This document shows positions 7,983 to 28,952 of a stretch of DNA of 64,000 bases, one piece after another. The position numbers and the translations under genes are program-made. The stretch covers positions 12,255,563 to 12,319,562 of the forward strand of contig CM085492.1 in assembly GCA_041753875.1 (NCBI GenBank), in the 5' to 3' direction. The stretch is from Acanthopagrus schlegelii (lineage: Eukaryota). The notes beneath the pieces are model-generated. The model was given only the letters and a program-made list of their open reading frames with translations, was not told the origin of the DNA and ran no database searches. Each line of letters begins with the position of its first letter. Position 1 is the first letter of the stretch.

Positions 7983-8081
7983 CTGTTCGGGGAAATTCAT
8001 CACTGAATCTTAGGAGCCCTGAGGAGGGTCCTGACACCAGGCTGGGAAATTCATGTTTCACAAACTCTCAGACCTACGGAC

Positions 8082-8372
8082 CTTCCTGACAAACCCTCTC
8101 CTCACTGTCCTGTCATCAAATGAAGATGAGGATATGAGTGGGGTCGTGTCTGATGGGGCCTCTGGTATGATGTCCCTGAAGGACTCGTACCCACCAGTGG
8201 GCTCATAGGTGCAAGTTGTCTCAGCTTTGAGTGGAGGATATGTAGATGGGGCTGCAGAGTAGGGCGGAGGTTGCTCCCCCTGGTAGGAGTATGCCGGTGG
8301 TGGTGGGGACACATCATAAGAAGGAGCGTGCTGTGTCTCTTTGGACGTGAGGTGGTCGGCTGTGTCTGACAT
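8082..8372 (-). CDS. TMBIM-family first coding exon; MSDTADHLTSKETQHAPSYDVSPPPPAYSYQGEQPPPYSAAPSTYPPLKAETTCTYEPTGGYESFRDIIPEAPSDTTPLISSSSFDDRTVRRGFVRKV
   Basis: Track ORF 8058..8417(-), ATG at 8372-8370, donor aag|GTCCGT. Pro/Tyr-rich N-terminus plus the DDRxVRRxFVRKV motif typical of TMBIM1/FAIM2/GRINA. An acceptor-like ctcag lies just 5' of the ATG, so an upstream non-coding exon is likely. Confidence 0.8.
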
Positions 8373-9944
8373 AGTGGAGGAAACTGAGGGGTGAAGACAA
8401 AGTTCAGTCAAACACAAAGGACAAACGCGGGGCAGATGGAATACATTCTGTTAAGCAGCAAGCGGGAAGGTCCGGTTTCCTGTGATTTAATGTACTGCAT
8501 GATTAACCAATTTAACTTTGGTGTCTGAGCTACTCAGAGGGATGTGTCCATGTCAGCCCACGTTGTTGATACAGTATATAGAAGTACATACAGCAAAAGA
8601 CGGCCTGTTTGTGCCTGTGCCTGTTCCTGTCCTGTCTGTCTCTGACGTAGATGCACGTGTGCCCCCCAGCACGTACAGGGCTTCTTACATCAGATCTGGA
8701 TTTCTAAGTGCAACCAGACTTGCTGCTGACTGGTTGCCACAGAATGGAGTAAAGATACGGAAGTAAAACTTGAGCCTTGGGGCCACTTCTCTTTCACCCA
8801 GCAAACATGGTGAGGAAGCCGGTGTTGTGCCATTGCATCTGGTTTAAAGAAAACCTGGTAACTTCACTAAATTCATGTCAGTGTTGAAGATTTACGTACA
8901 GGTATGAGCAGAGGTGGAGAGTAACAAATAGCAAATATTTAAGTAGATTTTTACATAGGAAAGCTTTTTTTCTTTCCCTCCCTACATTTGAACACAACTG
9001 ATGTACTTTCTACTCGTTATATTTTCAAAACTGGTTTGTTGCTTTAGATTTAATGCATCTGAGGAGAGTTATCGATTATTTATGACGCTTTACCAAAATG
9101 TCGTTACCTGACGTCCTGTGAATGAGACTCAGTCAATCAGCTATCCTTCTGGTGTGTTTGCGAACAGCTCAGATGAATCCTACTGATATTACCTTGAAGT
9201 TTAATAGTCTTTGAATTATATTATTATGACATGAGATTCAACCCTTCCCTAATCCTAGCTATGCACAGAAATGCCCATTCGAAATGTCCTTAAAAGGGAC
9301 ATTTCAGATCCTGTACTTTTAAGAATTTGCATCAGTGCATCTTTTTTCACACAACTATCTGTACTCGACTGAAGAATGTGTGAATATGTACTTTTGCCAC
9401 CTCTGTGATAATGCAATTTCACATCATTTTGGACCATTATATATCTGTACACAAATAATTGGAAAAGCTAGAGCAGATAAATTAGCAACACACAAAAAGC
9501 TTTAAAGGAGTATTGTTGACCCAGTAATGGATTTCTCATGTTGAAAATACATCGTAAATACTACAAGCAGAAAAAGCCGAGGACAATATACACAGAGCAA
9601 GTTCTTTAAATGAAGAACACTGACCTTTTTCTCCTGGATTATATTTGTGTCTGCCAACAGTCACAGTCAACAGTGCTGTGTGAAGAAGGACACCACACAA
9701 AGACCTTTCTTTATGTGTAACCTGTGGTGCAGAGTTTCACTTCCTCTCAACATGAGGTGGGGGAAAAAAAATTCCTGTCTGTGAAGCCTCATGTTGCGGA
9801 AACTCCACCGTTGCTTCAGACAAGGTTAGAGGTCATCATGGTAGGTCTCAGAACTTCCAAAGGTCCCCATGTTGGTCTTTCAGGGTCAACAATCAAAAGC
9901 TGCCTGTCCAGACTTGAGTCCACTTAAAGTACACATATTTTATC

Positions 9945-10065
9945 ATAAGATATTTTAGTTCATAAAATGTAAGAAAAGGGTAAAAAAAAAAAAAAAAAAA
10001 GACCTTTTTTGTCTCCTAGAATATAAGCTGATGTCATTAAAGGTCTTGGTTGACCCAAAAAAAAA
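9945..10065. repeat. second copy of the same dispersed repeat, with an internal A(19) tract
   Basis: Shares the tttagttcataaaatgtaagaaaagggtaaaaa...gatgtcattaaaggtcttggttgac core with 6425-6550. Confidence 0.5.
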
Positions 10066-12253
10066 AAAAAGTGTGTGTAGGAATATTCAACCTAAAATTG
10101 TTCAGGAACCACTGGTGTCAGCTGTTGCCAGGCAGAAATATTAATTGCAGTAATCAGGCCTGTGACTGACCACATCTCGAGATTGTTTGCCATAAATTCA
10201 AACTGAAAGTGAAAATTCCAGCATCAAGCTAAAAGGAGTGATTAAAAGTTGAATTTTGGATTGCTGAAACACATAAATCTCACTACCACGTCCACTTATA
10301 GTAAAACCTATAGTATAGGTTTTATTTACACCGGGGACTGAGCATTTGTAAAAAACTGCAAACTTTACAGCTTAGTCTGTCACCGTAGGAACAAACAGTG
10401 AGCGCTTTAAAAATGGTTTTGTTCCAACCAAGTTAGTCATTTAATAAATGTGGATGCTGTTCTTTAACCATTTAGTGTTTATTTCCTTGTGCTTTGTTGT
10501 ATGTTAAGTGTAATTTAAATTCTCTTGTTAAAACTAAACTCTTCAGGATGCTGTGTCCCGTTTTAGGTCTCACTGAACAGCACAAACAAGCACAAACGCA
10601 TTATTGACACTTAAAAACACAAACAGACATTCACAAAACGTCTCTCACACATATTTATTGTAAAAAATACATATAAAAACAATTTCTGAGACATACAAAA
10701 GATCGGAGCTTAGAAACAGTATATTGAACAGACAAAGACCAAGCCATTTTTCTTGAATTGCATTACATATTTACAATTTAATAAATAAAATTCAATTTGT
10801 TTTTATACCAGAGTAAAAGGCAGATTGTCCATATCTTGTGGATGCAGATACCGCTGTGGTGACTCTTTGAAAGACATTCTCATCTAATATGTCGGCCTCA
10901 AAGCACAGGGCGCACAGGGGGCGTCAGCGTCCTGCGATTCAAGACCAAGGATTTAGGGACATTTATACAAAATACCATCCTTGGTTGGAGAGGAGCTTGT
11001 TTACACACAGAGCGTTTAGTTAGCATTGGTAAAAATTGAGGTATTGCACCACACAGCTTAGAGGGGGGTAAGAAAGAAAATGTGAGTGATGTGGGGTTTT
11101 AGATTGCCTATTATCTTTATTGACAACCCAACCACCACCACCACCAACTCCCCCCAAAAACACACACGCACACACAAACACCCCCCCACCCCTCCCAGCC
11201 AAAGTGTACAACATTATAACTTATCACCACAACAAATGTAACATCTAATGATCAATGCAACTCGTCTTCCGCACTCTCTCACTCAATGCCCCCCAATGCA
11301 CAGACAGACTTTTGGCATTATTTTTTCTATTCACCAATACAAAAAATGAGAAACATGCACAGGGCTGCCCTCTAGTGGCGGGACAAGTCATAGCACCTCT
11401 GACTGCAGAACACTGGGGGGGGCTGGGGTGAACGAACCTGTCCACTGGGCTGACCTCTTCACTGATCCATACCGTTTGTACACACAGAGAAAACACACGG
11501 CACAGACTCGCCTCTTGAGCAGGCAGCAAAAGCAGTTAATTCATGTTTTTGTTCTTTTCCACTTTCCTCTGGCCTGAGCGCAATCTGCACCAGACAGCAT
11601 CTGTGGAGCAGCTTTACTGTTGTGCTTCCAGCCCTGAAAACTCTACGAATACCTGCTTGCACAAGAACCCCTTCACCAGGCAAAGGCAATCAACACACGA
11701 AAAAAGGCAAAGGAAAGCCATTTAACACATTTAGCAATAATCATGATCATAATGTGATGATATAATATCTAAAAACCTTAAAAAGAAAAAAAACCCAACA
11801 ACAATTGGGGAAAGTGGTGGGGGCTAGTTATGTAATAATTTACCATCAGCTGTCCATAGCCTCCAGTGTTGGAAAGCGAGGCAGATGCCACATGGTGTAA
11901 ACATGCCCCCAAAAATACATCCCTCTATCCATCCATCCCTTTATCCCTCCCCGATCTGGCATTAGTGTAACCAGATGGCAAAACTCTCTCTTGAGGGCAG
12001 GTCCAAAAAAAAATAAAAAAATCCGGACGCCACCCCAGAGAGGGTTTTAGAATGAGGAGGGAGGTGGGGGTGGCGTTGTGGGCCAAAAAACCCAAACCTC
12101 ATACAATGTAGAACAGGACCACATGAGCCACCATGTTGCATACCAATGCCACATGTTACAGGATGTTCGCCAGAGTGACTGGAGTTAAAAACTAGCATTA
12201 GAAATTAAAAGGGTAACCCGCTTGACCAAGCAGACTTCTGGGCGATTTACAGT

Positions 12254-12255
<2 letters not shown>

Positions 12256-12313
<58 letters not shown>
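12256..12313. repeat. (CA)n microsatellite, ~29 units
   Basis: Uninterrupted acacac... run read directly from the sequence. Confidence 0.95.
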
Positions 12314-12315
<2 letters not shown>

Positions 12316-15300
12316 TCAGTCATGTTCAGGACATTTTTTGTCCTTGGTCATCAGATCAACACACAAAAACAAGCACACACACACAACCTTAACCCAGACC
12401 TTTTGGGAAAAAAAAAAATTAGCCTTGATGGACAAAAGTGCTCAAATTGGTGCAAACACCAGCGCTACTATGGCCCTATGAAATACCTACAACCTTTCTA
12501 AACACTCAGCAAGTAGCAGCACATTAAACTCAGAGCTAACTAACCACCTACAAGAAAACTGACCTATTCAGAAAAACAATTAGCCCCCAAACTTCCCCTG
12601 AAATGTTTTACAGGTAGTAAGAAAAAAAAAAAAAGAAGAAAAAAAAAAAAAACACCTAGTAACAGCAGCCCCCATTCACCAAAAACAAAGCCTCAACCTC
12701 CAGCTGGTTCAAAGTAAAGCAACGTTTATGTGGTAAAAGTTCACGCTTTCAGTGTGAGGTTGGTTCATTTGGGGTTAGCCGAGGAAAGAAAACATTCATC
12801 CAATGTATGACATGGAACAATACTCTTTCTGCAAAATACTTGATAAAATGACCAATCCCATTTGGAGGGAGAAAAAAATACACAGGAGAGAATCCAAAGT
12901 CACAGTTCAGACAGCTTTTTTTTGTCTTCCACCCCACAGCTGACATCTTTCTGGGGCAAGTTCAATCATTTTGGGGTGATGATGTTTGATTTTTTGGGGG
13001 GTTTTAGTTTGTTTTTTGTTTTTTTATGCTGCGCCTTTTCAGGCCAAGTCCCTAACGCAGAAAGGGAACCTCCACCGCTTCTGTTGCAACAAAGGTCTCG
13101 ATCAGTGAAATTGGAGTAACCGTTTTTACTGTTGAAGTTTGGCTTGAAACGGCCTCGACCAAGTTCAAGTGGACTGATCCACGTGGAGAGCGTCAGGTGT
13201 CGCTAAGTGGAGCTTCCTCTTAGGATCTTCTGCCATCTACTCAAATACAGGGTTTGCGTCTGAGGGGGACAGTGGGCTTCGATTTGTTTAATTACACCTT
13301 TTTTTTTAAATTGGGATTCAATGTAGTCTCCTGTAAGGGTGGAAAAACACAGAGTGACCATTAGACAACGGAATGTATACTATAACAACTGCATTCAAAT
13401 ATAGTCTGCAACAGATGTGGGCAATGTGGTTAATATCAACATCAAATGAATAATATTTTTGTATCATTGATCATTTCACGATGTGGGAAGTGCATTCAAT
13501 ATCACAGACCATTCTCACAACCACGGCTTGTGTATTTCTGCTGAACAATATAGTCGGTGTGCCTGATGCTGAAATTAACTAAATGTCCTGGTCATTCAGT
13601 GGGTCGTACACGAACATACCTGAGTCAGGTTGGTCACTGTGCGGAATACATGTGAACCTTCAGTCAATCGAAAGGATGTTCGGGGCAGCAGGGTTTCACC
13701 TTGGACCAGGAATCAATGCAGCTACGTGGACAGAGACCAGAGGTGAGGGGACACCATGAGATTATATTCTGATTCATTCATGTTAAAAAAAAAGAAAAAG
13801 GGACCTGGCTAATGATAATCCATAAAGCTTGTTGTGAGCCGTTTCATGTCAGAACGCCTCCGTCAGCATTGTGATAAGGTGTTTTTCAGTTGAAAGTAAA
13901 CATTTTTCATACACGAAGCTGCGAAAAAAAACCTCTGTGGATTATCTTGAGAGAGTGGGTTATTAATTCTGTTAGCCGTTATTGCTGTTGAGTTTCTTCA
14001 AATGTATTTTTTGGGTTATATTATATTCAAGAGAAGACGGACATCTCTCAAGCTTGACCACCTCTACAAATACAATCTACATGGATAAATGGTAATATAG
14101 GTAGCAATAGCGCATCTGAGTGTGCGCTAGCGCTTTAATGTGCCATAATCTCTATGATGGGAACCAAATCTGAAGGCAATCACTGCAGCTGGTTGTGAAT
14201 AACCCTCTTTTAGATGTGATAACCTGTATTTTCTTTCCGTTGTGTGAGGGTTAACTCAGCACATTTGGGGACTGGATTGTTGGTCGAACAAAATGAAAAG
14301 TTTGAAGACCTTAGGTCAGATTCGACAAATCAAGAAAGAAGTTTAACGACGAGCAGAAATGGAAATATTTGTTCATCGCAGTCTGACACTAACACATGAA
14401 CATGCACTGTATAATTATTTCTAACCCCGTCATCTTTTAGATTCTAACATTCCAGACTTTTTCCAAATCTCTGTTGCTCGACTGGGTGGATCAGAATGTC
14501 AATTACACAGCCAAACAGCCCCACCTATAAACTGTGGTACAAAACTGAGAACTTCTTGTTCTATGACCAGAACAAAAGACAGACATGTTGTGTGCTTTAT
14601 CTGAGATTAACTTGTGCCGCAACTCAATTTCAGTTGTCTCCGTGCTGGTTATCCATCACAGTAAAACATCAGAGTGCTGTCAGGGTCACATTGTTGTCCT
14701 GTGGAAACTCAGTGTGGATTTTCGGATCAATAAGCACTTAAAAACACATAATGAGATGGATCACATAATCTTGGTTAATTTCGAGTCTCAACAAGTCCAG
14801 CGTCACGCTGGACTGACATTATGGGAAACTAATGGCTCCTTGTAAGTTAGGAAAGACCACAAGTGTTACAGCGTGCTTTGAAACTGAAAATTAGAAGTAA
14901 ATGAGCTGAAACGCGCATAAACACTCACGATCCTTTCACAAAATTGTGATCATTTCTTTTTCAAACCACTTGCACAAGACTTTGATCTGATACATCTGTG
15001 AGTATGTCTTGTGAAAACATAATGACACGGCACATTCTACACGTGTAAAAGCTGTAGTGGAAAACATTCACACCATTGAACTTAAAACATAATCTGTTAG
15101 AGAACAGAAACACGCAACCTGTTGATATTTTCATTTTCACATAAAGTTAACAGAGTTACACTCTTACACTACACTAATCCATTTTATCTCATTTTATCTC
15201 AAAATAATGATTCTTAATGGAGGTATCACAGCACTGGTTGTCAAGATTACATTAATCATATCATGGAAAATGACAGGGGGTCTGTAATTATCACAAACGT

Positions 15301-16106
15301 GTACATCCACTCTTACAGAACAACCAGTGCTTCCTTATATTCCAAACTCTTTAGACTAGTTACCACTGGCGATGCAACTATCAGTTATTTCCTTTAGTGA
15401 TAAATCTGTTTAATATTTACAAATAATTAAATGCACATCACAATCTCCCAGTGCCTATAGTGATGCTTTCAAATCACTTCTTTTGTCCAAGGAACGGTCC
15501 AAAAGCTCTAAGACTCTTCATTAACTGCCATAAATGACAAATAAAAGCAGCAAATTCTTACATTTAAGAAGCTGGAAAAAGCAAAAGTTTGACATGTTTG
15601 CTCTACAAATGACTCGAAGTTTACATGATGGCGTGCAAATCAAGGAACCCCTTGGTTCATTGCTATGTAGACATTGAAGTTCCGACTCTGGTGACATAAT
15701 TAATATCTATTTTGACAGAAGTAGGAGAACTGGTGTCCACTGAGCCACCTTGTATTTTTTTTTTGTTTTTTCAAACAGGAATAATTGTATGAGAGAGTAA
15801 TTGTGCATGAGTAAATGTATATACCTGTACATGTATTTATGTAAACTCAAGCTGTCCTTTAAATATTGTGAGTCAGTCCATAGTTGGCAACTAATTTTCT
15901 TTCGATCCACTAATCGATTAATCTGCTGCAGCTCTAGCTACCGCATTTCGTTCAGTTCTGGAAACAGCCAAATAAATGTTTCCTGTCATATGCACGATGT
16001 CTGCTTTTAATCTCACCCACACTCATTTGCATCTTTACCCCCCTCTTTTCATTTATATCTGTCTGTATTTTATTGTAATGCAAATATGTCGACTGAACTT
16101 TGATAC

Positions 16107-16212
16107 CTCTTATGGTAGACGCAGAGGCAAGCCAGCCTGGCAATGGTCTCTCCCTGTACCAGATCCTCCAAACAGATGGAGCACTCTCCGCTGTCTTTAC
16201 TCAGCACGTCCG
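16107..16212 (-). CDS. ZNRF1/2-like E3 ligase, RING exon; DVLSKDSGECSICLEDLVQGETIARLACLCVYHK
   Basis: Track ORF 16070..16408(-). Minus acceptor ttcacag| and donor ag|GTATCA. About 75% identical to the ZNRF1 RING DVLTKDAGECVICLEELLQGDTIARLPCLCIYHK. Splice phases are consistent with the flanking exons. Confidence 0.75.
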
Positions 16213-16293
16213 CTGTGAACACATGCACAAAGCGACCATAAGTGTTCCCAGCCTTTTTTAAAAACACATTCATTTCTGTGACATGGTACTTAC

Positions 16294-16389
16294 TGTTGTA
16301 AGGTAGGGGAGGAGACGTGAGGCAGCTCAACAAGTGATCCTCAATCCGACCTCCCGGGAAAGGCTTTGAGCAGAATGGACAGCGGATAT
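16294..16389 (-). CDS. ZNRF-like zinc-finger exon; IRCPFCSKPFPGGRIEDHLLSCLTSPPLPYN
   Basis: Minus acceptor ctctgcag| and donor a|GTAAGT. Matches the ZNRF1 segment FKCPICSKSVASDEMEMHFIMCLSKPRLSYN (the C-P-x-C-S-K...H...C-L zinc-ribbon pattern). Confidence 0.75.
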
Positions 16390-17741
16390 CTGCAGAGAGC
16401 AGACACACAACGGAGCTGAGATTAACACACTGTCACAGCTGGGATATAAATGATAGATGATCTGAACATCACATCGAGTACAACTGCTGTATTAAGACGG
16501 CTAGAACACACAGGCTGACTTGGCTAACCGTGGAGCAGAATAAAACACAATCAGACTGCATGAGGCAGTGTGAATGATGAAACCTCGAGTATAACTGACC
16601 CAAAATAGTTAGAAACTTAAATTTGACTGTATGCACTGCACACTATAATGATGAGGGCTGGAGGGAAAGCCACCGCTAGAGCGATGAGTGGATGCGACAG
16701 ACAGGCAGATACAGTGCCTTGCTGCCCTACATTCTCCTCCTCCTCCATCTATGAGCTGCTGCCAGCAGTGAGCGGGCATGTGAAGTTGTGACCCATTTCC
16801 CTACACTTGCTAGAGGGCTGTCCTGGGAAACCCACCACACTGTTGTGTTTTGGCTCGCGATCTCAATGTTTTGCCGACACACCACCATTTCTGTGTATCC
16901 CATTGTTGAATGCAGACCAAGAATGCATTTTCGCTTCCTCTGCACAGTTCCCTTTTAATGCACTTCTTCAAAAAGGGGGGTTGGTTCTTTAATATTTTGC
17001 TCGCTGCAGGATTTACCACTGACAACAACTGTCAACAGGCCTTGAGACATGAAAGAGCCAGTATATCACCACTTCCAGTTTTGCGCCATTGCTCCGCTTC
17101 ACACAATAGGGTCTCTTATGATTTTAGTCAGCATGCGAGCACGGGAAAAGAGATTATCTGTTCAGGAATGTAAATTCCCCAAATAATCCATTTTAATTTC
17201 TGAGTGGGTAGTTACACTTGGAGATATTTTGATTTAAAATTAAAAGTGTGATGTGAGACTAAATGTTTTTGAATTTGTTAACTACTGAAGCAGTATTTTT
17301 TTTTTTTTTTTTTGTCCTTGGGTTGCTGCAGAGTTAGGTGAAGCATTTTTTTTCTGACTTGATCTTAGTTTTATGACTGATTCAAGTTGACAGTTAATAG
17401 ATTATTTTCAATGAATACATACAAACATTCATGTCTTCAGCTGAAAATCGTCTGTCTCAGTCATACCCCAAATGTCGTCATTTTTTTATGACGAGGTATT
17501 GAGTCATTTAATGATGTTCATACTGTCAGGCTCCAACAGATCCACACATTCCTTGTAACTTCTGTGGAAAACTCAATGTTTATGTAAACGTGAGCTACCT
17601 AAAGCTAAAGGCACACACACACACAAAAAAAATGATGGAGACCAGATAATTATTATGGCAACTGCTTTGAATGCGCCACACATGTTAAAAAATATATATG
17701 TATGGAAAATACTAACGGACAGTGTAAATGTATTAACTTAC

Positions 17742-18267
17742 TGCCATGGCGGTTGTTAACACGGTACAGGCCGATCCAAGCCTCTGACACCGGCCGCTGG
17801 TGTGTGCCTCGGACCCGGGCGGATCTTGCGCCAACGCTGCGGGCGGAAGAGTGCCGATTGCCGGGGAGCCGCTCGGAAAAAGTGCGGTGGGGCGTGCGGC
17901 CTGTCTCCTCTCCGGACTGATGTTCCGCTACGACAGGGGGCTCCGGGCTTATGTTACCGTCTTCCTCGGGTTTCCCCTCGCTGTTGTTGTCGTCCGCAGG
18001 TGACGCTTGGCTAATGCTAGAAGGGATGCTGTGGTGGTCAGCGGGGCTACCGTCGGCGCTCGCCCCATGCTGCCCCAGGTCTGAGTCGCTGCCCTCCTCC
18101 GATCGGCTCCGGTTGGCCTCCGTGTCCTCGAAGCTCCCCGAGAAGTCGACCATGAGACTGGTGGGCCTGGTACACCGGGATCGCCGATAGGAATCCCGCT
18201 TTGTGCCATCTTTTCCGAAAGCAGAGGGAACCGGGTCTTCCTGTAGGCGACTTGCTCTCGTCCCCAT
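17742..18267 (-). CDS. ZNRF-like first coding exon; MGTRASRLQEDPVPS... acidic Ser-rich N-terminus ...GLYRVNNRHG
   Basis: Track ORF 17653..18267(-). ATG at 18267-18265 and consensus donor ggca|GTAAGT at 17741-17740, whose phase joins the next exon exactly (a+at = N). MGxxxS is an N-myristoylation consensus, as in ZNRF1/2. The region is a GC-rich CpG island. Confidence 0.65.
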
Positions 18268-18320
18268 CTCTGGCGAGCTAGCTAGCTAATTCAGCTGGCT
18301 AGCCGAGCTGCTTCCTCAAA
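17750..18320. promoter_or_regulatory. CpG island covering the ZNRF-like 5' exon/promoter, divergent from the tep1 promoter region
   Basis: Very high CpG density (runs of cgg, gcg, ccg) compared with the AT-rich surroundings. Confidence 0.6.
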
Positions 18321-18779
18321 GCGAACCACCACAGAAACAAGGGGACGAGTTAACCTCGAAACGACCCTTAAACTCCTAAATATTCGTCCGGTGACTTCAA
18401 ATACGCCTTTCAGCTGAGCCTAACTAAGACGATGTAGGCAGTTCAACCGTCTTTCTCTGGCCTCAGTTTGTTCTAACTGTCCACATTTTCCTTTCTTTTT
18501 TGACGTGCCCGTTCTCGCTACTGCAGCGGAAATAGAGCATTTTCGCTTCCTCCTTTGAGCCGTACACGAACCATTACGGTAACGTCACCGTATCATCCGA
18601 CAGTTTGTAATTCAAACATTAAACGACATTCACGTGTTTGTATTAAATTGATGTGTTTGTTTGTGATTATTGTGTTAAGTCCTGGAAAATTCCGCCACCA
18701 TTCGACCTAATATTCGATTATTTGAGCGTAGGGGCTCATATAGGAGGTATTACGGTAAAAAAGTACACAATAATACTGA

Positions 18780-18784
18780 CCAAT
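18780..18784 (+). promoter_or_regulatory. tep1: CCAAT box (tgaCCAATcagcg, NF-Y-type) in the putative tep1 promoter
   Basis: Canonical gaccaatcag motif about 190 nt upstream of a GAG|GTGAGT donor at 18973. A TATA-like catatagg lies at 18737. Confidence 0.35.
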
Positions 18785-18849
18785 CAGCGCTCTCGAGAGG
18801 GTAGCCAAGCAGCTGCTCGAGTGAGGAAATTTACTGTAAACCAACAGCC

Positions 18850-18973
18850 ACACCAAGCTAGCAGAGATAGTGTCAGTTTGATGCCAAAACCACAGTTCAT
18901 CAAACAGAAACTGAATACTCCAGAGGACACGTCTGTTTAGGGTCAGCTCTACATCCGTCCACCTTAAATTGAG
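18850..18973 (+). other. tep1: putative tep1 non-coding 5' exon (start uncertain), donor GAG|GTGAGT at 18973/18974
   Basis: The first coding exon starts with an acceptor (tttgcag|ggATG at 19917), so an upstream exon is required. A strong donor follows the CCAAT-box region. Confidence 0.3.
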
Positions 18974-19916
18974 GTGAGTTTCCGCGTATGACCCGATTGC
19001 TAACGGCTAACCGCCACACCTACTCAAAGTATTGAGTCATTGCAAAGAAATAAACCACCAGGAACCCCCATGACCTATGTTGAATGTTTAAATATTGACT
19101 AATGTCCGAGTTAGATTCATATATGGCAGATGAAACTGGTGGCTGACTTCTGAGAGGTGACGCCAGTTAGTTTCTAGTTAGTTATAGGGGCACTATGAAG
19201 TTTTTGGGAAAGGGATTTTAATCATAGGGGGGAGATGTCTTTATTGACTGAGCTTTTTCTGTTTTCATGACTGAAAAAAGTCACGAAAACAGCATGAATA
19301 TATCTGAGGTTGTGTTATTAACTCCCTAATATTGTAAATAGTCAAATTCTGAGTTTGAATTTTCTCTCCAAATCTACATTGTTCTTCATAGTGTCCTTTA
19401 CACGGTCTAGTTAGGAGTTGAGAAGTTACGTGTTTATGAATATATGCCAAAAATCCTTCATTACCAGAGTGAAGAAAGGGCTTGCAGTGCACCAAATAAA
19501 AATGTTGGCATTGTTTTTTTAAAGATTTTTTTTTTGTTTTCATTTGGTCTAAAGTTTGGTCAAAGTTTTTGGTTTGCAGTAAGCTTTTGCATGGTAGCCA
19601 ACGTTTCGACCACGACCAAACTGATTTGTATGGTATTTGTATGAGTACCTTTTGCATTTTATCTATGCGTTGTGTGCTCCTGGCATAATGTTTTTTTTAG
19701 ACTTTGTACCCTTTTATGGATGCTTTTAATTGACGCCCTCTACACGCCCATAACTACCTTAGTACACACTGTTCAAACAGCAGTAAAAATGCTGCTGAGC
19801 TGCTTGTGTCAATACTTCGTGCTATCTAGGATTAGGCAGGATTGTGTTTGTGAATGAGAGGAGGAGCTCAAACATGTGACAGCCGCTGACCTTCTGACTG
19901 ATGTGTTTCTTTGCAG

Positions 19917-20455
19917 GGATGAGGGCGCTGACTTTGCAGCAGCCAAATGTGGCCAAAGGAGAGCAGCAGCAGGCCACATGTGGGAGAAGCTTGTCTTCCA
20001 ACTATGTTCCTCTGAGTCTGGAGAATAAGTTCTTAGCGCAGACCTCCACACTGATGCCTCAGCCTTGCTCTCCACTGTTAGATTTTGCAGCAAATCCTTC
20101 CTCTTGTCCCTCTCTCCAGCCTTCCAGTCTGTCTTCCACCTCATCATCCCTTCTCTCCAGCTCTTCCCTCTCGCCCTTCCTCACCTCCCCTCTCCTCGCC
20201 TCCCCTCTCCTTGCCTCGCCTCTCCTCAGCACCGAGAACAAGCTCCTAGCTAGCCACTCTCTGCTCTCCTCTGCCCCTAATGCGTCTTTGCTCTCCACAT
20301 CCTTGACCAGCAGTGCTCTGCTCAATCGCTTTTCTCACACTCCTTCATTCCTACATCATGCTCTGGATGAGGAACAGAAGAGGGATGATGGAGAGGACAA
20401 AGACGGAGAGGAAACATCTGAAGTGATGCAGTCCTGTTGTGAAGAAATAAGTGTG
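19917..20455 (+). CDS. tep1: tep1 first coding exon (ATG 19919); MRALTLQQPNVAKGEQQQATCGRSLSSNYVPLSLENKFLAQTSTLMPQPCSPLL...SPLLASPLLASPLL...EEISV
   Basis: Track ORF 19901..20473. The acceptor lies 2 nt before the second ATG; donor gtg|GTACAT. The LSLENKFLA motif matches the human TEP1 N-terminal repeats (DILSLENRCLA). The region is S/L-rich low complexity. Confidence 0.75.
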
Positions 20456-20545
20456 GTACATGAAATGCTTTAACCTGTTGAACACCATCTTTGATTAATC
20501 TTTTTCCATGTTAACACTATTTTCATGTGATTACTTCTGCATCAG

Positions 20546-20719
20546 ACATATTCTGAGGAAGATGACGATGTTTCATCTGAAGGGGAGACAATCATGAAAT
20601 TACCTGCCCTGGAAATAGTTAACCAGGAATTCGAACATATTTTGGACATCAGACAGGAGGAATTTGCTGAGGTTGAGAGAGGAGATGATAAGATTGAAGA
20701 GGAGCGGAAGGACAAAAAG
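20546..20719 (+). CDS. tep1: tep1 exon; TYSEEDDDVSSEGETIMKLPALEIVNQEFEHILDIRQEEFAEVERGDDKIEEERKDKK
   Basis: Acceptor gcatcag| and donor aag|GTTGGA, 58 codons, phase 0-0. Confidence 0.75.
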
Positions 20720-20879
20720 GTTGGAGAAAAGATTTTAAACAGCATATGAGTGCATTTGTATGTGTTTGCAAGTTTAATATTTCTCTGCTCCAGTGCCAGG
20801 AAATTATATCCCTGTGTTTATTTTGTATGTGTTGGTTTAATTTAACACTTACGTCATTGTCCCTCTGGCTGTTCCACAG

Positions 20880-21029
20880 TATCTCCTGCTGAACTCTGTG
20901 TGTTGCTCCTTGGTCAATAAGAGCAAAGCTCCAGGTGAGAAGGACTGGGACTCAGAGGACAGTGTTTGGACCAGGATCACAAACCTGACAAAGGAGATTT
21001 CTGAGTATGACCCAGAGTTTCCTCTCAAG
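20880..21029 (+). CDS. tep1: tep1 exon (TROVE start); YLLLNSVCCSLVNKSKAPGEKDWDSEDSVWTRITNLTKEISEYDPEFPLK
   Basis: Track ORF 20898..21122. Matches human LLSLLCSTLVSEVNMNNTSDPTLAAIFEICRELALLEPEFILK. Confidence 0.85.
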
Positions 21030-21421
21030 GTGTGTATGTATTACCCTGCAGGAGGGTGGGGGTGGGGGTATTTATCTGAAGGCATTTTTATTTGTATCCC
21101 CAAACTGGATTGGTGCTCCTGAACTTTCATGTTAACTTTATAATAGTAATGCTTTAACCCTACCAGGACATCATCATGCTACTATCATGGTCAACCAATC
21201 AAGAAAAAAATCAGCCCAGGAAATGACATGTCAAAAAAAAAATAGTAGGAATACTATAAAATGTATCATAGAAATTACACGATTTGGTAGAAAACCATTT
21301 TTTAAACAGTTACCAAAACCTGACTGTCCTAAGTTGACAACGTTCAATCAACGATAGAATTCGGTTGTAATAATTTTGGTTGGTCATGTACAGCGTGCTT
21401 GTTGTTTCCTTAACCATTCAG

Positions 21422-21586
21422 GTGGCGGTTTACACTCGACAGCAGTTGAACATCCGCATCACAGCAAACTTCTTATTGGCACTGGCTGCCAATCTGCCCT
21501 CCGCCAAGCCACATGTCCGCAGGTACTTCTGTACTGCAGTGCAGCTGCCCTCAGACTGGCTGGAAGTCATTAGAATCTATAGCATG
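21422..21586 (+). CDS. tep1: tep1 TROVE exon; VAVYTRQQLNIRITANFLLALAANLPSAKPHVRRYFCTAVQLPSDWLEVIRIYSM
   Basis: Track ORF 21380..21655. Near-identical to human ASLYARQQLNVRNVANNILAIAAFLPACRPHLRRYFCAIVQLPSDWIQVAELYQ. Confidence 0.95.
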
Positions 21587-21675
21587 GTAAGTCTTAATGA
21601 GCGTCTTAATGAGGAATCTGGATGCATTGGTGCTGTTAAGTCTTCCAAGTCTTAACAGTGTTTGTCCGTTTCCAG

Positions 21676-21813
21676 TGCTTCAGCCGCTCCATGCCAGCTT
21701 GCCTGAAGAAAGCAATGGTTGACAAGTTCAAGCAGTTCAGCGAGTATCAGCTGGCCAAATACAACACACGCAAACACCGCTGTAAACACAACCGCAACAG
21801 GCGCAAAGCCAAG
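21676..21813 (+). CDS. tep1: tep1 TROVE exon; CFSRSMPACLKKAMVDKFKQFSEYQLAKYNTRKHRCKHNRNRRKAK
   Basis: Track ORF 21658..21840. Matches human PLPACLRTAMTDKFAQFDEYQLAKYNPRKHRAKRHPRR. Confidence 0.95.
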
Positions 21814-22037
21814 GTACAGACGTGCTCATTTCAAAACTAAGATGAAACCAAATGGTACAAATACACCAGTGTTATTGACAATTATTAAGATTGTTTCTCA
21901 ATTTTATTGTTCCTTGACTGAGAATGGATCGAAACTTTGTGCAGTTTCTATTTTGGTCTTAACTAATTTCTATAAATGAACACTCCACTGTTAATTTCTT
22001 CATTGTTTGCTCTATGCACACTGTCTTTGATTTTCAG

Positions 22038-22109
22038 AAGCCCACTAATGAGAAGCTGAGTACGTGGGCAGGGTTGCTCAGATCACATGAATCTATGCTG
22101 AAGAAGTTT
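22038..22109 (+). CDS. tep1: tep1 exon; KPTNEKLSTWAGLLRSHESMLKKF
   Basis: Acceptor ttttcag| and donor ttt|GTAAGT, 24 codons. Confidence 0.7.
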
Positions 22110-22406
22110 GTAAGTTTATATACTGTACTTTCCTTTGGTGTCACTCAGTGAGTTCTTTGGTCAGTTTTACATTTCGAGTTATATTTTTTAAAAAGTTTTA
22201 GCTCACATACCCCTCTGCTATATATGCAGTTATGGGCCTAGTGTAGACTGGGATAAAAATATTTAGTCTGTGTCCTGGTGATTCAAAGGAAACCTCTTCT
22301 AGGTTCTACTTTATTTTGTACGTATTGGACTTCCTCTCTCGGCGTGTTCTTCATTCTTTGTTTTGCTACACACTCATGTTTAAACACTGTTTTTTTGTGT
22401 GTGCAG

Positions 22407-22528
22407 TTGCAGTTAGAGGAGAAAAAGGTGGTAGATAAAAAGCAGAGTGAGTTCAGTATAAAGAAGATGATCAAGAGGCTTCACATTAAAGAACCGGCTG
22501 AACATGTTATGGCCATCCTGGGAAAAAA
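22407..22528 (+). CDS. tep1: tep1 exon; LQLEEKKVVDKKQSEFSIKKMIKRLHIKEPAEHVMAILGK
   Basis: Track ORF 22278..22532. Matches human KKLVQRLHIHKPAQHVQALLGYR. Confidence 0.9.
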
Positions 22529-22686
22529 GTAAGCCACACAAACACTTTCACGCTTGATAAGTTGGTTGAATGTAGTTGGTGTTTAGTTAGCAGTCTCGGG
22601 CCTGTCGTGTAATCTCAGGTTTTCCTAGACTCTTAATGCTGGACTTGTTCTCCTTCCAGTTTAAAATGTGTTTGTGTTGGCCACAG

Positions 22687-22844
22687 GTATCCTGCTGACT
22701 TGAAGACGTTCACCCGCAGTGGAATGAAGGGCAACTGGGACAGGGAGAGAGCCGGGAAGCGAATGAAGCTCAAAGAGCCTGAGACATGGGAACGGCTGGT
22801 CAGTCTGGAGGGCAACAAGGCCGCCACCTGGGAGAAGCTCATAG
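22687..22844 (+). CDS. tep1: tep1 exon; (K)YPADLKTFTRSGMKGNWDRERAGKRMKLKEPETWERLVSLEGNKAATWEKLI
   Basis: Track ORF 22700..22954. Matches human YPSNLQLFSRSRLPGPWDSSRAGKRMKLSRPETWERELSLRGNKASVWEELI. Confidence 0.95.
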
Positions 22845-23084
22845 GTCTGCTGAGCACATACATACAGGCACTCTTACCTTCCAGCAGGTGTTTGAGCGCA
22901 CTGATTTCACCGTTTACACCAGATCTATTAAAGAATATAACGTATTGCTGGTAAACACAACAAATGTTACAAATACAGCAAACAATAACTATTATAAGCT
23001 ACCATTATGTAATCTGTGGAGATGTTGCCAGACTCCCTTTAAAAAAATGCAAAATTTTGAGACTTGCTGTGGTAAGGGAAAGGT

Positions 23085-23285
23085 TATATTTACAGGGTTT
23101 CTGTCTTAAAAAGTCTAAAATTTGACAGTCTCAATTTTAGGCCTTAAAAAGTCTTAAATACATCCATATTTTACATACAGGTTACATAGACGTTTTCGTA
23201 CTTCGTTTAGGTCTTAAATTTAGTTCAAAGTGGTCTTGAAAATGTCTTAAATTGGACATTCAAACCTGCAGAAACCCTGTATATA
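23085..23285. mobile_element. MITE-like element in a tep1 intron, with 13-bp terminal inverted repeats (tacagggtttctg ... cagaaaccctgta)
   Basis: Perfect inverted repeat ends about 190 bp apart. The internal sequence repeats the motif gtcttaaa(t/a) five or more times. Confidence 0.5.
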
Positions 23286-23641
23286 GACTTAAGGAATTAC
23301 TGTCCACAACACATTCTTAACTATTTGGGCCTATTTGTCTTCAAATGTTATACATGAAGATATTTCTTTCTTTGTGTAAAAAGTATTGTATCCATCTATA
23401 TCAATGATGTAGGTGTTTATTTTATTATTGATCGGTGAAGTTGGATCCGATCACAAGAGCTCACTCAAGTCGCTTCTTGATGTTTTTTATGCCAGGTATG
23501 AATTGATGAGCTTGAAGCTTTCCGCTTGTGATCAGATCACTCAGAGTGGACGCTAAAACCGAATGTGAACAGGTGCTTGGATATTCAAAGATTCACTTAA
23601 GTTGCATTTACATTTCTCTGATTTACGTCTCTATATTTTAG

Positions 23642-23751
23642 ACAATAAGTCTCTTCCATTCATGGCCATGCTGAGGAACCTGAGGAACATGATCATTAAG
23701 GGCATCAGTGAGGCTCATCACAAGAAGGTCCTCAGCAGACTGACCAATAAG
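23642..23751 (+). CDS. tep1: tep1 exon; DNKSLPFMAMLRNLRNMIIKGISEAHHKKVLSRLTNK
   Basis: Matches human ENGKLPFMAMLRNLCNLLRVGISSRHHELILQRLQHAK. The phase continues from the previous exon (g+ac). Confidence 0.9.
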
Positions 23752-23837
23752 GTTAGTCATTTTTTTAAATAATAAAACATTGGTAGGACATGTTATTACA
23801 TGCTTTGTGTAACTTTGTGTTTTTGATGTGCTTACAG

Positions 23838-23916
23838 AATGCTGTTATCCAGAGCCGACAGTTTCCCTTTCGGTTCCTTGCTGCCTACAAAGTCATCATG
23901 GAGCTTCACACTTTGG
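23838..23916 (+). CDS. tep1: tep1 exon; NAVIQSRQFPFRFLAAYKVIMELHTL
   Basis: Matches human SVIHSRQFPFRFLNAHDAIDALEAQL. Confidence 0.9.
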
Positions 23917-24818
23917 GTGAGATACAAACACATCAAGTGGCTCTCATTCTCTTAACTGAAATCTGATTAAAGAACTTTTAGGTAGCTTGTTTTTTAGATG
24001 TGGTATTTTATTCCACTCATTTAGTATATGGAAAAAGGCTGACAGTCCTACCATAAAATTTATTTTGAAATGAAGAACAAAAAATGATCCAGGTTATAAT
24101 TGAGAAGTTATATTCATAAATACTGTTGCTGTAAAGAACGAGGCTGGTGATATTTTGTATTTTTCTTTATTAACAAAGCTCACTGAAAGAGAAGGATGGC
24201 AACTGATTATCAATGGATCTGCCGATTATTTTCTTGATCAATCGATTAATTGTTTGGTCTATAACAGGTCAGAAAATTCTTCGCCACGACACCCTAAAGC
24301 ACAAGGCGACATCTTCAAATGACTTGTTTTGTTTGGCCAACCATCCGAAGTGTAAAAGCAGTAAATTCTCACATTGGAGCACCTGGAACAAATGAATATT
24401 TTTTTGCCAGAAAATTCTTTATGTCTTCATCCACAGTTTTGAATCCCAGTTGCCCCCAATGCTCCCATCAAGTTTTTTTTTTTTTTTAATTAGTGAAACA
24501 TTACATCTCTATTTTTGAAAATTTGCATCAGTAGGAACCGGTAAGCTTGGACCCAAGTCATCCAAGTTATCGAAAGACGGATTAACATCGTTTGTTTCGG
24601 CTCTTAATGGAGATTTTTGACAACCTGAAAAATATATAGTAATGACAGCCTCATCCTGTAATATCAGTAGTGTTTCATATGGTGGATCAACTTTTGATGT
24701 TAAACCAAAATATGTTGATAAAGTAAAGTACCTTAACAAACCTTTCTCAATGAATATGAAGTAGAAAAAAAAAAACTAAAAACAGACAGAACCTCCTCTT
24801 TGCCTCTCTGTCCTCCAG

Positions 24819-25011
24819 CCTCTGCATCACAGAAAGCAATCCCCTCTGTTGCTACAACCCTGGCGGAAATTCTGAAGAAGATTCCCAAGAGCAAGCGCTA
24901 CAGTAGTCTGGAGTGGGATAAAGCTCCAAGGAGTAGAATCAGGGTGGCACTTGGAGTGCCCTTTGTCTATCGACTCTACCGAATGAAGAGGGCCCAGTAC
25001 ATAAAGGCCAA
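24819..25011 (+). CDS. tep1: tep1 exon; ASASQKAIPSVATTLAEILKKIPKSKRYSSLEWDKAPRSRIRVALGVPFVYRLYRMKRAQYIKA
   Basis: Acceptor tcctccag| and donor aa|GTATGA. In-frame with track ORF 24800..25030. Confidence 0.7.
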
Positions 25012-25947
25012 GTATGAAAATTTCCTTTGAGTTTCAGTGGTTTGACAAAAAACAATAATCTACATAATGTAGTTTTAAGTATAAACCCACATTTGTTTTT
25101 TAGGGTCCCTACAAAGTTTTGAAAGTTTGGACAACGCTGAATTTCAGTCTTTGGTTAGAAAAGGCTTGATTTTCAACATTATATGGTCTTTCGTCTACAC
25201 AGTCATTCATATGAAACAAATATCCTTTACATTTTTTAATGAAATGATCTGTCCTCATTTGTTTGGTGTCTCCTTAAAGGATAACCTTTTGTGGCTCTAG
25301 AGGAAGCTGCATGTAATCTGATAAATTGCCTCCAGTGATGTCACTCTGTGACTGAGCTGCATTTTGGGTAATGCAGGCGCCAGGTTTTGAAAAGGAAGAA
25401 GAATACGTGGAATAAAAACACGATATCTCTAGTTCTGTTGTATTGATTTGATGATTTGTTTTTAAACTGTCCATAATGAGTCCTATGGTGTTTTAGGAGT
25501 GCAATGCAGGCCAGTGGACTGCTTTCCAAAAGTTGGTACCTACGTTAACCTCAATGCAGCTTAGCCTATGATATCACCCGAGGCAATTTTTAGAACTCTT
25601 TAGATCTCTTCCTTGGGGGCCACAAAAGGTCTTTTAAAAATGTTTTCATATATGCAGTTGTAGTCCCCACTTCAACGTAAGTTCTCCACCTGAAAAAAAT
25701 CAGGGAAAACAGTGAGCAGCACCTACCTACAGGAACTCAAAGTGAGCTGCCTGATCACAGGGAAGCACAAAAACATGGCATAACAAAACTGCCTCTCAAG
25801 AAAAAAATTAGCTAAAACCACATTGCACAGTTTTTTTGCTCTTTTGGAGATTTGGTTGGTACGATCACATCTGCTTGGATTAAAAAGAAATTGTGCTTAG
25901 TTCTATAATATCTCTCACTCTCTCTCTCTGTCTATGCTTTCATCCAG

Positions 25948-26233
25948 TCAGAAGCTGTACACTGTTGATCTGTTGGACCGTTACCGCAAAGCTTTGGAGA
26001 CGGCGGTCCAGATCTCCTGTCGTTTCAACCTGCCCCCACTCCCTGGACGCACCGTTATCGTGCTCAGTAATAACATGAGCACTTGCGCGAAATCGAAATA
26101 CGACTTCTGTCTACCACCAGACCCTGAGCAAAAGAATGAGGAGGAGGAGGACAACAACAACGAGGATGGGGAATGCAAGAAGCCCCCAAGCAGACGGAGG
26201 AAAGAGACAGTAGATGAAAAGCTTACTCCTTCT
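25948..26233 (+). CDS. tep1: tep1 exon; QKLYTVDLLDRYRKALETAVQISCRFNLPPLPGRTVIVLSNNMSTCAKSKYDFCLPPDPEQKNEEEEDNNNEDGECKKPPSRRRKETVDEKLTPS
   Basis: Track ORF 25934..26266. Matches human EMLNRYRQALETAVNLSVKHSLPLLPGRTVLVYLTDANADRLCPKS. Confidence 0.85.
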
Positions 26234-26337
26234 GTAAGAGCCTGTTTTTTTTTGTTTTTTTTATAATTGCCATTATCACTGAATGTATGGGCTATTTGAC
26301 TTTATGCTGATGTGTCCATATTTTAACATTTTCTCAG

Positions 26338-26499
26338 ATGAGGGAGGTGGGAGCTTTGCTCTCTCTGATGATTGCCAGCAGTGCCGAGGACTGTCAGCTC
26401 TTGTTAATTGATTGGGTTCACTGCGAAGAAATCAAGCTGAAGTCTGATGTTCTTTTGGATAACATCAGGAATGTAGTGAAGCAAATGGCCAAAACCAGG
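26338..26499 (+). CDS. tep1: tep1 exon; MREVGALLSLMIASSAEDCQLLLIDWVHCEEIKLKSDVLLDNIRNVVKQMAKTR
   Basis: Track ORF 26338..26568. Acceptor ttctcag| and donor agg|GTTTGT. Confidence 0.75.
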
Positions 26500-26764
26500 G
26501 TTTGTTGTTTTTTACCGTGGAATCCCTCTTGCATTTCATGTAATGAAGTTCTTCTCATCCTACTTTAATCCCTCATGGAGAGGGATTAAACAGAAGTGAA
26601 GTATATCCAAGAAATGTACTTAAAAAGCGCTTTAAGTGAATAAAAAATTGTGTTGGTAGACTTATAGATTTGCCGTTATGAAGTTTCTGTTAATAGATTT
26701 TTGCCTTTATTGATTCATTAAGTTTTTGTTTTTGTTTTTAACATGTAAGTTTTTTTTCTTCCAG

Positions 26765-26818
26765 TCAGATTATGAAGAAAATGATTTCATCGGCACAGTG
26801 TTCAACAAGTCAAACAAG
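26765..26818 (+). CDS. tep1: tep1 exon; SDYEENDFIGTVFNKSNK
   Basis: Acceptor ttcttccag| and donor aag|GTAGGT, 18 codons, phase 0-0. Confidence 0.6.
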
Positions 26819-27323
26819 GTAGGTAGGAGTTTTATGAATAAAACAGTTGTTTGTAATTGCAACAGGAAGACATAATCTATAACAAGACTGTTTTTAACAT
26901 GTAAGGAGAATGAAGAACAGATATTTGTGTTCAAATGTAGGGAGGAAAAGTGGTATTAAAAACAATTATAACAGATGTGACGCATCCAGTGGAACTGGCT
27001 AACAGCGCACTCACGCACATTTAAAAGATGACTCAGTCTTTAAAGGAGGAAGCTATTTGGAGAAGAAATAGCAGGTGAAGTTTGGAGGTTCACATGCATT
27101 CCTGAGATATCAGGACCATCTCATCATGACACATGCAAATAGACAAACCATAAATTAAAAAAAAAAAAAAAGTTTAATTTATTATACGCTTTGCAGGTTG
27201 CACAAGTTTCAGAATGGAAGCACAGTACTTTTTTAGATGGTCTTGATTTTCTTCTTTAGACGACCGTACAGGATGCCTGCTGGTCACCCTTGACATCAGA
27301 CATTATATGCTTTTGTAACTTAG

Positions 27324-27448
27324 GTGGACAACATCATCGTGGTGACTGACAGATGGAAAGAACGCAGGACTGCAGCGACCATCAACAACTACAGGAAGGA
27401 AATAAATGACAAAGCCCTCATGGTGCAACTCTTCTTGTCAGCAGACGG
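27324..27448 (+). CDS. tep1: tep1 exon; VDNIIVVTDRWKERRTAATINNYRKEINDKALMVQLFLSADG
   Basis: Acceptor acttag| and donor gg|GTAAAG. Confidence 0.65.
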
Positions 27449-27712
27449 GTAAAGCTCCAAACCGCTACTGTAGCTGCTGTTTCTCCTGTTTCTCCTGTAT
27501 CCTATAGACAGTACTGGGAAGCTAAAGCTGCGCTCCAACCAGTCACAGTCAGTGGCGAAATTTGAAATTGATTTTAAAAAGTTTCTATTTCTGTTTTCCA
27601 GCTACATTGTTTCAGCATAGACAGGTACTCAGCTGGTTTCTGGTTCCCTTCCTGTCTCTAACTTATTCTGAATGCATTTATCGTTATATTGACTACTTGC
27701 AGAGAAGAAGAG

Positions 27713-27778
27713 CTCTCGCCTGACAGGAACTGTGTGACACTGACAGGCTTCAGTGAACAAATGCTGAGGTAAAGTGTC
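27713..27778 (+). CDS. tep1: tep1 exon; (G)EEELSPDRNCVTLTGFSEQML
   Basis: Acceptor cttgcag| and donor ag|GTAAAG. Confidence 0.6.
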
Positions 27779-28207
27779 TGCTTTCGCATTTTCATCCAAG
27801 AACAGATTTATATTATTTTACATTACATTTATTTATTTACTTTCTTGCTTATTTGCTTGATGAATGTTAGATGAGATGATAGATCACTGTTGGAGATGGA
27901 GTCAGCAGCTTGTTAGGTTAGAATAGCATTAGCCAACTGGAAACGAACCCCACCTACCTGCATCTCTTAAGCACACCAGTTAACACCTCACAGAGCTGTT
28001 GTCATGTTGGATTTTGTTACCCTTCAACTGCAGCTGTTAGCTGTTGCCCACTGTTGGCAGCCTGTATGCTAAGCTAACTGGATGTTGGCTGTAGGTTCAT
28101 CTTACAGACATTAAAGTGGTATTGACATTCTCATCGAATTCTGTACAAGGGGACAAATAAGTGTATTTTTCCTCAATTTGTAAATAATTCTATGAATACG
28201 TGATCAG

Positions 28208-28351
28208 GTTTGTGGCGGAACGAGGATCATCGAGGCTGCTGGACCATGTAGAGCATTTAGACAAACTGTACAACATCCCACCACCAGACGGAGCTAAAAG
28301 TCCTGAGGCCACAAATAATGTTGTGGAAATACCAGCCAGCCCCAAGTTAAG
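28208..28351 (+). CDS. tep1: tep1 exon; (R)FVAERGSSRLLDHVEHLDKLYNIPPPDGAKSPEATNNVVEIPASPKL
   Basis: Matches human ILKFIAEHGASHLLEHVGQMDKIFKIPPPPGK. Confidence 0.85.
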
Positions 28352-28485
28352 GTAAGTTTCATTTCCTGTCAAAGAAGCAGGTCTGAGCAGTTTTTTTTTT
28401 TTACATTAATGGTCTGCTGTCCAAGATCTTTTTTTCCCTCCCTTTTCCACACAAGTTCAACACCAACTCCTTCCTCTGCCCTCAG

Positions 28486-28777
28486 GTGGCGAGGTGTACG
28501 CGTGTTTATCTCCTCCACCTTCAGAGACATGCATGGCGAGCGCGATATCTTGGTGCGGAGCGTGTTCCCGGAGCTGCGGCGTCGTGCTGCATCACACTGC
28601 CTCTACCTGCAGGAGGTGGAGCTGCGCTGGGGTGTGACAGAGGAAGAGTCAGAACGGGCCACGCAGCTATGCCTGTCGGAGGTGTGTCGCAGCCAGATGA
28701 TGATAGGAATCCTGGGGGAGAGGTACGGCCTGGTACCCTCCAAACCTGTCCTGCCCGACCTGCCGCAGCACAGCTGG
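28486..28777 (+). CDS. tep1: tep1 NACHT-domain exon; (R)[97 protein letters not shown]
   Basis: Track ORF 28409..28840. Near-identical to human [87 protein letters not shown]. Confidence 0.95.
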
Positions 28778-28952
28778 GTGAGACTACTGATGCTTTGTCC
28801 TGTGGATGTTTTATTAAAATTGAGATTAAAATCAAACTAGCCTTAAAACTTAAAAGTGAAAGAGCATTTCTGCCAGTTTTTAAATGTGCATTAGAATTTT
28901 AAATATTCTTTTAAATGTTGACAGAAGCATCATTTGAATTCTTTGTGTGCAG

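Follow-up and report, generated by a model that had tools for sequence, protein, structure and literature searches.

A diverged, intact terminal exon completes the RING of a predicted ZNRF-family ubiquitin ligase gene in Acanthopagrus schlegelii

Does the ZNRF-like gene found on contig CM085492.1 of Acanthopagrus schlegelii encode a whole RING domain, or has it lost the second half? The gene lies on the minus strand of a stretch of 64,000 nucleotides (nt), referred to below as the window, to which all position numbers refer. A prediction made earlier from the letters of this window described a RING E3 ubiquitin ligase of ZNRF1/2 type with an atypical N-terminus and no detectable conserved terminal RING exon, and proposed, among other explanations, that the paralog is decaying or that the assembly contains an indel. 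We find instead an intact exon at 13721-13620, in phase, which supplies the missing half, and we regard it as almost certain that the locus is an intact, expressed-type gene of five exons, four of them coding, whose product is a 261-residue RING E3 ubiquitin ligase of the ZNRF family. The coding sequence (CDS) runs from 18267 to 13664: the four coding exons splice in frame into 786 nt, with GT-AG introns throughout. The gene is already known, since public annotation has the same structure; its product is identical at every residue to RefSeq XP_036939138.1 / KAM8727986.1, named 'E3 ubiquitin-protein ligase ZNRF1 [Acanthopagrus latus]'. The locus therefore holds neither a truncated or decaying RING ligase nor an assembly error.

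The terminal RING exon

The question arises at the end of exon 3 (16212-16107, 106 nt; acceptor gttcacag/C, donor AAGAG/GTATCA, the slash marking the splice site here and below). This exon encodes the first half of the RING, C218-x2-C221-x14-C236-x-C238-x2-H241, and ends in frame as ...ARLACLCVYHK followed by two spare bases, AG, so that, as had been rightly stated, a final exon is needed to complete the domain. A scan of the whole window in six frames for RING skeletons (C-x-E-H-P, W-F-E and similar) gave one decisive match, on the minus strand near 13700, which reads ...LCPR SCIDSWSKVKPCCPEHPFD followed by a stop. The DNA at the boundary between intron 3 and exon 4 reads ...ctctggtctctgtccacgtag/CTGCATTGATTCCTGGTCCAAGGTGAAACCCTGCTGCCCCGAACATCCTTTCGATTGA. 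The acceptor (gtccacgtag/C) has its AG at 13723-13722, and exon 4 begins at C13721, in the required phase. The split codon AG+C gives Ser243, after which CIDSWSKVKPCCPEHPFD and a stop are read (13721-13664), that is, C-I-D-S-W-S-K-V-K-P-C-C-P-E-H-P-F-D and then TGA (13666-13664). Exon 4 thereby adds C244, C255 and H258, the last three zinc ligands of a ZNRF-type C4HC2H RING, the full pattern being C218-x2-C221-x14-C236-x-C238-x2-H241-x2-C244-x10-C255-x2-H258. The original prediction had allowed that a normal terminal exon encoding CPEHP might lie elsewhere, which would make its own candidate irrelevant, and this is where such an exon lies.

Exon 4 falls within the range 8500-16100 that had been searched before. 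It was overlooked because the search required W-F-E, as in W-F-E-V-N-R-S, whereas the gene reads W-S-K, as in W-S-K-V-K-P-C. The statement that no splice-compatible W-F-E occurs between 8500 and 16100 is literally true, but it was no sign of an absent exon, as this family has W-S/C-K at that place. The lesson is a general one: a search for an exon that is keyed to the exact residues of one paralog misses an exon that is diverged and intact, whereas a search for the skeleton of zinc ligands (C-I-D-x-W ... C-P-E-H-P) recovers exon 4 immediately.

The spliced model agrees with a transcript and with a second genome. A Logan contig of 2192 nt (SRR25788543), from an ortholog with 92% protein identity, carries an uninterrupted open reading frame and is therefore a spliced transcript. 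Five blocks of it align to the window, and it is collinear with the spliced model from end to end over all four junctions, including those between exons 3 and 4 and between exons 4 and 5. The window is likewise collinear with the genomic locus of Anabas testudineus, where the annotated CDS terminates at the stop homologous to 13664 and positions 13108-13243 align to 13725-13575 of the window. Among the aligned orthologs from other fishes, a comparison that had been suggested at the outset, the C-terminus SCIDSW[S/C]KVKPCCPEHPFD is kept in 27 of 27 (with the tail KVKPCCPEHPF[D/N]). More specifically, W248, V251, K252, C254, C255, P256, E257, H258 and P259 are invariant in this alignment.

These results bear directly on the two explanations that had been built around positions 14948-14975, where, at about 14968, one frame reads W-F-E and a second reads C-I-R-S, and where an insertion of about 14 nt was supposed to have shifted the frame of an ancestral exon. 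According to the first, the gene is a decaying or pseudogenised ZNRF paralog that lacks the second RING half and keeps a frameshifted relic of the exon at that place. The two short motifs are all that speaks for it; against it stand the intact, phase-compatible CIDSW...CPEHP exon at 13721-13664, the identity of the product with the RefSeq protein, the conservation of the C-terminus in all orthologs examined and a ratio of non-synonymous to synonymous substitution (dN/dS) far from that of a decaying gene. By the Nei-Gojobori method, the CDS of the window compared with that of the ortholog transcript has a dN/dS of 0.062 over its whole length, of 0 in exons 2-3 and of 0.019 in exon 4, which shows six synonymous differences and one non-synonymous. 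The gene is under strong purifying selection, constrained rather than decaying, and we give the pseudogene explanation practically no weight. According to the second explanation, a spurious insertion of about 14 nt in the assembly, at 14940-14980, breaks the true terminal exon. Only the juggling of frames in the original prediction argues for such an error; the true exon is elsewhere and intact, and the Anabas ortholog uses the homologous exon, so that we find this explanation just as hard to credit.

The supposed relic itself is a chance feature of an intron. The tripeptide W-F-E is present six times when the window is translated in all six frames, against about two expected by arithmetic from base composition. 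A blastn comparison with the Anabas locus gave no match over 14948-14975, the nearest conserved intronic block being at 14442-14548. We accordingly rejected the relic as an intronic stretch with a chance tripeptide and no conservation in Anabas. We also rejected a second acceptor that had been considered for the missing exon, at 15051, which would open a reading S-FYTCRMCRV... that has neither homology nor zinc ligands in register; the ortholog transcript holds no sequence corresponding to either candidate.

Family membership and proposed mechanism

The assignment to the ZNRF family, already made in the original prediction, is borne out by structure-based and profile matches. Residues 174-261, which include those encoded by exon 4, match the zinc finger and RING of human ZNRF1 (PDB 5ywr_B) with E = 5e-34, and Pfam zf-RING_2 is found at 30.8 bits, against a gathering cut-off of 27.3. 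As far as sequence can tell, every defining feature of the family is found in the protein: (i) the RING ligand pattern ending in CPEHP, with C218, C221, C236, C238, H241, C244, C255 and H258 aligned to 5ywr_B and all eight ligands invariant across the 27 orthologs; (ii) the ZNRF zinc finger directly upstream of the RING, C179-P-F-C182 ... H194-L-L-S-C198, also aligned with 5ywr_B, its four ligands C179, C182, H194 and C198 being invariant in the same alignment; (iii) the myristoylation consensus M-G-x-x-x-S/T, in the form of MGTRAS, with G2 invariant and S6 at least 90% conserved; (iv) the E2-contact residues of ZNRF1, E183, L188 and E189, aligned to E217, L222 and E223, all in exon 3, of which the first two are invariant within the clade and the third is at least 90% conserved. 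The NCBI record of the Anabas ortholog carries the CDD domain name 'mRING-CH-C4HC2H_ZNRF'.

The zinc finger is encoded by exon 2 (16389-16294, 96 nt; acceptor ctctctgcag/A, donor ACA/GTAAGT), over both junctions of which the ortholog transcript is collinear. Exon 1 (17742..18390, donor GCA/GTAAGT) holds the 5' untranslated region (UTR), which extends to at least 18390, and begins to code at the ATG at 18267-18265; the alignment of the ortholog transcript to this region spans 18390 to 17739. Its coding part (18267-17742, 526 nt) gives residues 1-175 and one further base, that is, the MGTRAS start and a region rich in Ser, acidic residues and Arg. The boundaries of exons 1 to 3, the phases that link them and the myristoylation-type start are exactly those first proposed. 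The N-terminus, by contrast, had been called atypical, and for this gene it is not: the N-terminal 173 residues are not junk, being conserved motif by motif in ray-finned fishes. The motifs RPTSL, S-R-S-E-E-G-S-D-S-D, R-T-F-S-E-R-L and R-P-V-S-E-A-W-I-G are conserved from gar to percomorphs, and within RPTSL residues R34, P35, S37 and L38 are invariant. ZNRF1 and ZNRF2 also possess long low-complexity N-termini.

ZNRF1 and ZNRF2 are myristoylated. By analogy, Gly2 of the fish protein would be N-myristoylated and would anchor it to membranes, where it may ubiquitinate membrane-proximal substrates, and its C-terminal RING would recruit a ubiquitin-loaded E2 as those of ZNRF1 and ZNRF2 do. In the structure of ZNRF1 with Ube2N, contacts involving Glu183, Leu188 and Glu189 give nanomolar affinity, and the RING alone binds (PMC5941314). 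Because these contact residues are retained, as listed above, Ube2N/Ube2V1, acting in the formation of K63-linked chains, is the likely partner; E2s of Ube2D type may be secondary partners. The N-terminus, rich in Ser, Arg and acidic residues, is a plausible region of regulatory phosphorylation, with R-x-x-S at S37, S131 and S161 and the SRSEEGSDSD block; to judge from the motifs, the three R-x-x-S sites and the acidic Ser cluster could be of basophilic-kinase and CK2 type. ZNRF2 is membrane-associated and is released upon phosphorylation by Akt (PMC4889327), and the N-terminus of the fish protein might be regulated in an analogous way.

Several points weigh against taking the gene as an ordinary, expressed ZNRF-type ligase. 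It is by homology that the protein is credited with E3 activity, myristoylation, an E2 preference and phosphoregulation, and the transcript that supports the model is a contig from an ortholog rather than from the A. schlegelii genome itself. The RING loop between ligands 6 and 7 is where the protein departs most from ZNRF1/2: five of seven positions are different (FEVNRS in ZNRF1/2, SKVKPC in the fish protein), and the loop bears an additional invariant cysteine, Cys254, beside the seventh zinc ligand; with such a loop, the choice of E2 or the activity could therefore differ from those of ZNRF1/2.

Placement among the ZNRF paralogs

If the gene is an intact member of the family, which member is it? 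A homology search with the protein gave 158 hits. The best 120 are either proteins of ray-finned fishes or unnamed contigs of transcript assemblies, and some two thirds of these 120 span the whole query, Amia and Lepisosteus among them; identity is 95% in Anabas, 93% in Scomber and Larimichthys, 61% in Amia and 56% in Lepisosteus. No tetrapod member of the clade is found among the matches listed. Orthologs of this one gene change their name from one species or pipeline to the next (ZNRF1, znrf2, ZNRF2-like, 'uncharacterized', zgc:66427-like), and a literature search under zgc:66427, the zebrafish-style name that the Hemibagrus ortholog carries, found no paper.

The simplest placement follows the RefSeq name in A. 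latus, that is, the gene would be the fish ortholog of ZNRF1, with no separate third paralog. RefSeq and UniRef name many members of the clade 'ZNRF1', the motif K-S-C-I-D-S-W agrees with ZNRF1 and not with ZNRF2 (K-G-C-I-D-E-W), and some 60% of the residues of the C-terminal domain are the same as in ZNRF1. However, a search with the human ZNRF1 domain, followed by alignment, shows that fishes own a separate znrf1, 91% identical to the human domain and reading WFEINRS, as well as a znrf2 reading WFEVNRS. These far more ZNRF1-like teleost proteins, e.g. those of Crenichthys and Cirrhinus, cluster with bird and mammal ZNRF1, and other pipelines call members of the present clade 'znrf2' or 'uncharacterized'. 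In a neighbor-joining tree of the 88-residue domain (200 bootstraps), the protein of the window groups with its fish orthologs in a clade of 99% bootstrap, outside ZNRF1, ZNRF2 and the invertebrate homologues, and this clade joins a coelacanth fragment (H3AAU4, labelled ZNRF1, with the tail ...SCIDSWCEVKPCCPQHP) at 98%, in a setting where the short alignment, the distance method and the long branch make deep placement unreliable. The protein stands apart from the ZNRF1 orthogroup in its loop too, W-S-K-V-K-P-C rather than W-F-E-[VI]-N-R-S, and from the ZNRF2 orthogroup both in the tree and in the alignment, where it is without K-G-C-I-D-E-W-F-E. We therefore think it improbable that the gene is merely ZNRF1 under its proper name.

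We lean instead, with some reserve, towards a third, ancient and unstudied ZNRF paralog, kept in ray-finned fishes and in the coelacanth and marked by a clade-specific RING loop, W-S/C-K-V-K-P-C-C; this loop, together with the conserved phospho-type motifs of the N-terminus, could confer a specificity for E2s or substrates distinct from that of ZNRF1/2. The sequences suggest that the fish clade is a faster-evolving paralog that arose before ray-finned and lobe-finned fishes diverged. Inconsistent naming, which lumps this conserved, strongly constrained and probably third ZNRF-type ligase of fishes under ZNRF1 or ZNRF2, could lead astray anyone who assigns function from the gene name.

Gene surroundings and known ZNRF ligases

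The remaining features of the gene lie at its two ends. A CpG island (17600..18800), noted in the original prediction and found again here, covers the promoter, the 5'UTR and the first exon: the observed/expected ratio of CpG in 400-nt windows is 0.87-1.31 at about 17600-18800, against 0.41 over the whole window, and the GC content rises to 0.66. At the other end, coding ends in exon 4 (13721-13620), yet one more exon follows it, the ortholog transcript revealing an extra intron in the 3'UTR (13619-13331). After the stop, exon 4 continues for 44 nt of 3'UTR to the donor CAG/GTATGT (13620/13619), and exon 5, which is 3'UTR only, runs from 13330 to at least 11966 on the minus strand (acceptor cccttacag/G at 13331/13330), with bases 1069-2188 of the transcript aligned to 13333-11966. 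This intron, on which the ortholog transcript agrees, starts 44 nt after the stop codon; nonsense-mediated decay usually takes a distance of at least about 50-55 nt and would therefore not be expected. Conservation with Anabas extends further, as far as about 10571; the AATAAA at 10659 may serve as a polyadenylation signal and marks a candidate 3' end only. Note that the long 3'UTR (10571-12995, minus strand) is unusually well conserved, with 75-77% nucleotide identity to Anabas across about 2.4 kb, a level comparable to that of coding exon 1, and that it contains a (GT)n microsatellite; it may hold elements of post-transcriptional regulation.

The CpG island lies between the ZNRF gene and a divergent neighbour on the plus strand, the two genes standing head to head and sharing it. 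The neighbour extends from about 18.6 kb to beyond 29.6 kb (18600-29700) and is collinear with an Anabas gene of 2603 residues. Among its domains (exons at, e.g., 25934-26266 and 28409-28840), DUF4062 is clear and TROVE is a weak match at 21.8 bits, under the Pfam cut-off of 23 bits. This gene looks like TEP1 (telomerase-associated protein 1), to judge by the human sequence (...FISSTFRDMHGERD...RWGVTEEE...). The annotation of Anabas did not help to place its start: no ATG in the window corresponds to the first coding exon given there, a very small one that seems to come from automated annotation. On the other side, downstream and on the minus strand, lies a gene of the Bax1-I/TMBIM family (about 8417-4931), collinear with Anabas, whose first coding exon, an open reading frame at 8058-8417, encodes a Pro/Tyr-rich N-terminus; below 4073, again on the minus strand and collinear with Anabas, follows a PARP gene with WGR, PARP_reg and PARP domains. 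The ZNRF gene thus sits between the TEP1-like gene and the TMBIM- and PARP-family genes. PARP2 and TEP1 are presumably neighbours on human 14q11.2, with no ZNRF gene there, an order that PARP ... TEP1 in the window recalls; if this is true, it fits the loss of an intervening ZNRF paralog in tetrapods.

Compared with ZNRF1 of human and mouse (PDB 5YWR, with Ube2N), the fish protein has the same MG start, long low-complexity N-terminus, C-x2-C...H-x3-C zinc finger and C-terminal C4HC2H RING ending in CPEHP-x-D, and the last 88 residues of the two are about 60% identical. It retains the residues that contact Ube2N (E183, L188 and E189 in ZNRF1), and its exon break inside the RING, after YHK, is consistent with a conserved intron position in the family. 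The two proteins differ in the loop (W-F-E-V-N-R-S-C in ZNRF1, W-S-K-V-K-P-C-C in the fish protein), before ligand 3 (R-L-P-C and R-L-A-C, respectively) and in the zinc finger (CPIC..SVASDE and CPFC..PFPGGR, respectively), and the N-terminal 173 residues of the fish protein have no recognisable alignment to ZNRF1. With ZNRF2, a membrane-associated E3 regulated by Akt and mTORC1 (PMC4889327), it shares the domain order, the type of RING and a Ser/Arg-rich N-terminus with motifs of basophilic-kinase type, which would make a regulated release from membranes a reasonable analogy; several pipelines label members of the clade 'znrf2'. However, ZNRF2 reads K-G-C-I-D-E-W-F-E-V-N-R-S, and separate fish znrf2 exist, e.g. 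in Ameca and Arctogadus.

Outside ray-finned fishes, the 86-residue fragment H3AAU4 of Latimeria chalumnae has the clade features CPFC, YNTD, ECSICLE and SCIDSWCEVKPCCPxHP; it is a fragment only, reads RLPC as ZNRF1/2 do and has a divergent spacer in the zinc finger. In Drosophila, detour (CG14435) is the single invertebrate homologue of ZNRF1/2 (PMC10869362). It has the same C-terminal module of zinc finger and RING, and the aligned invertebrate homologues keep WFEVNRSCPEHP; they are nearer to vertebrate ZNRF1/2 than is the fish clade, which forms a divergent, fast-evolving branch.

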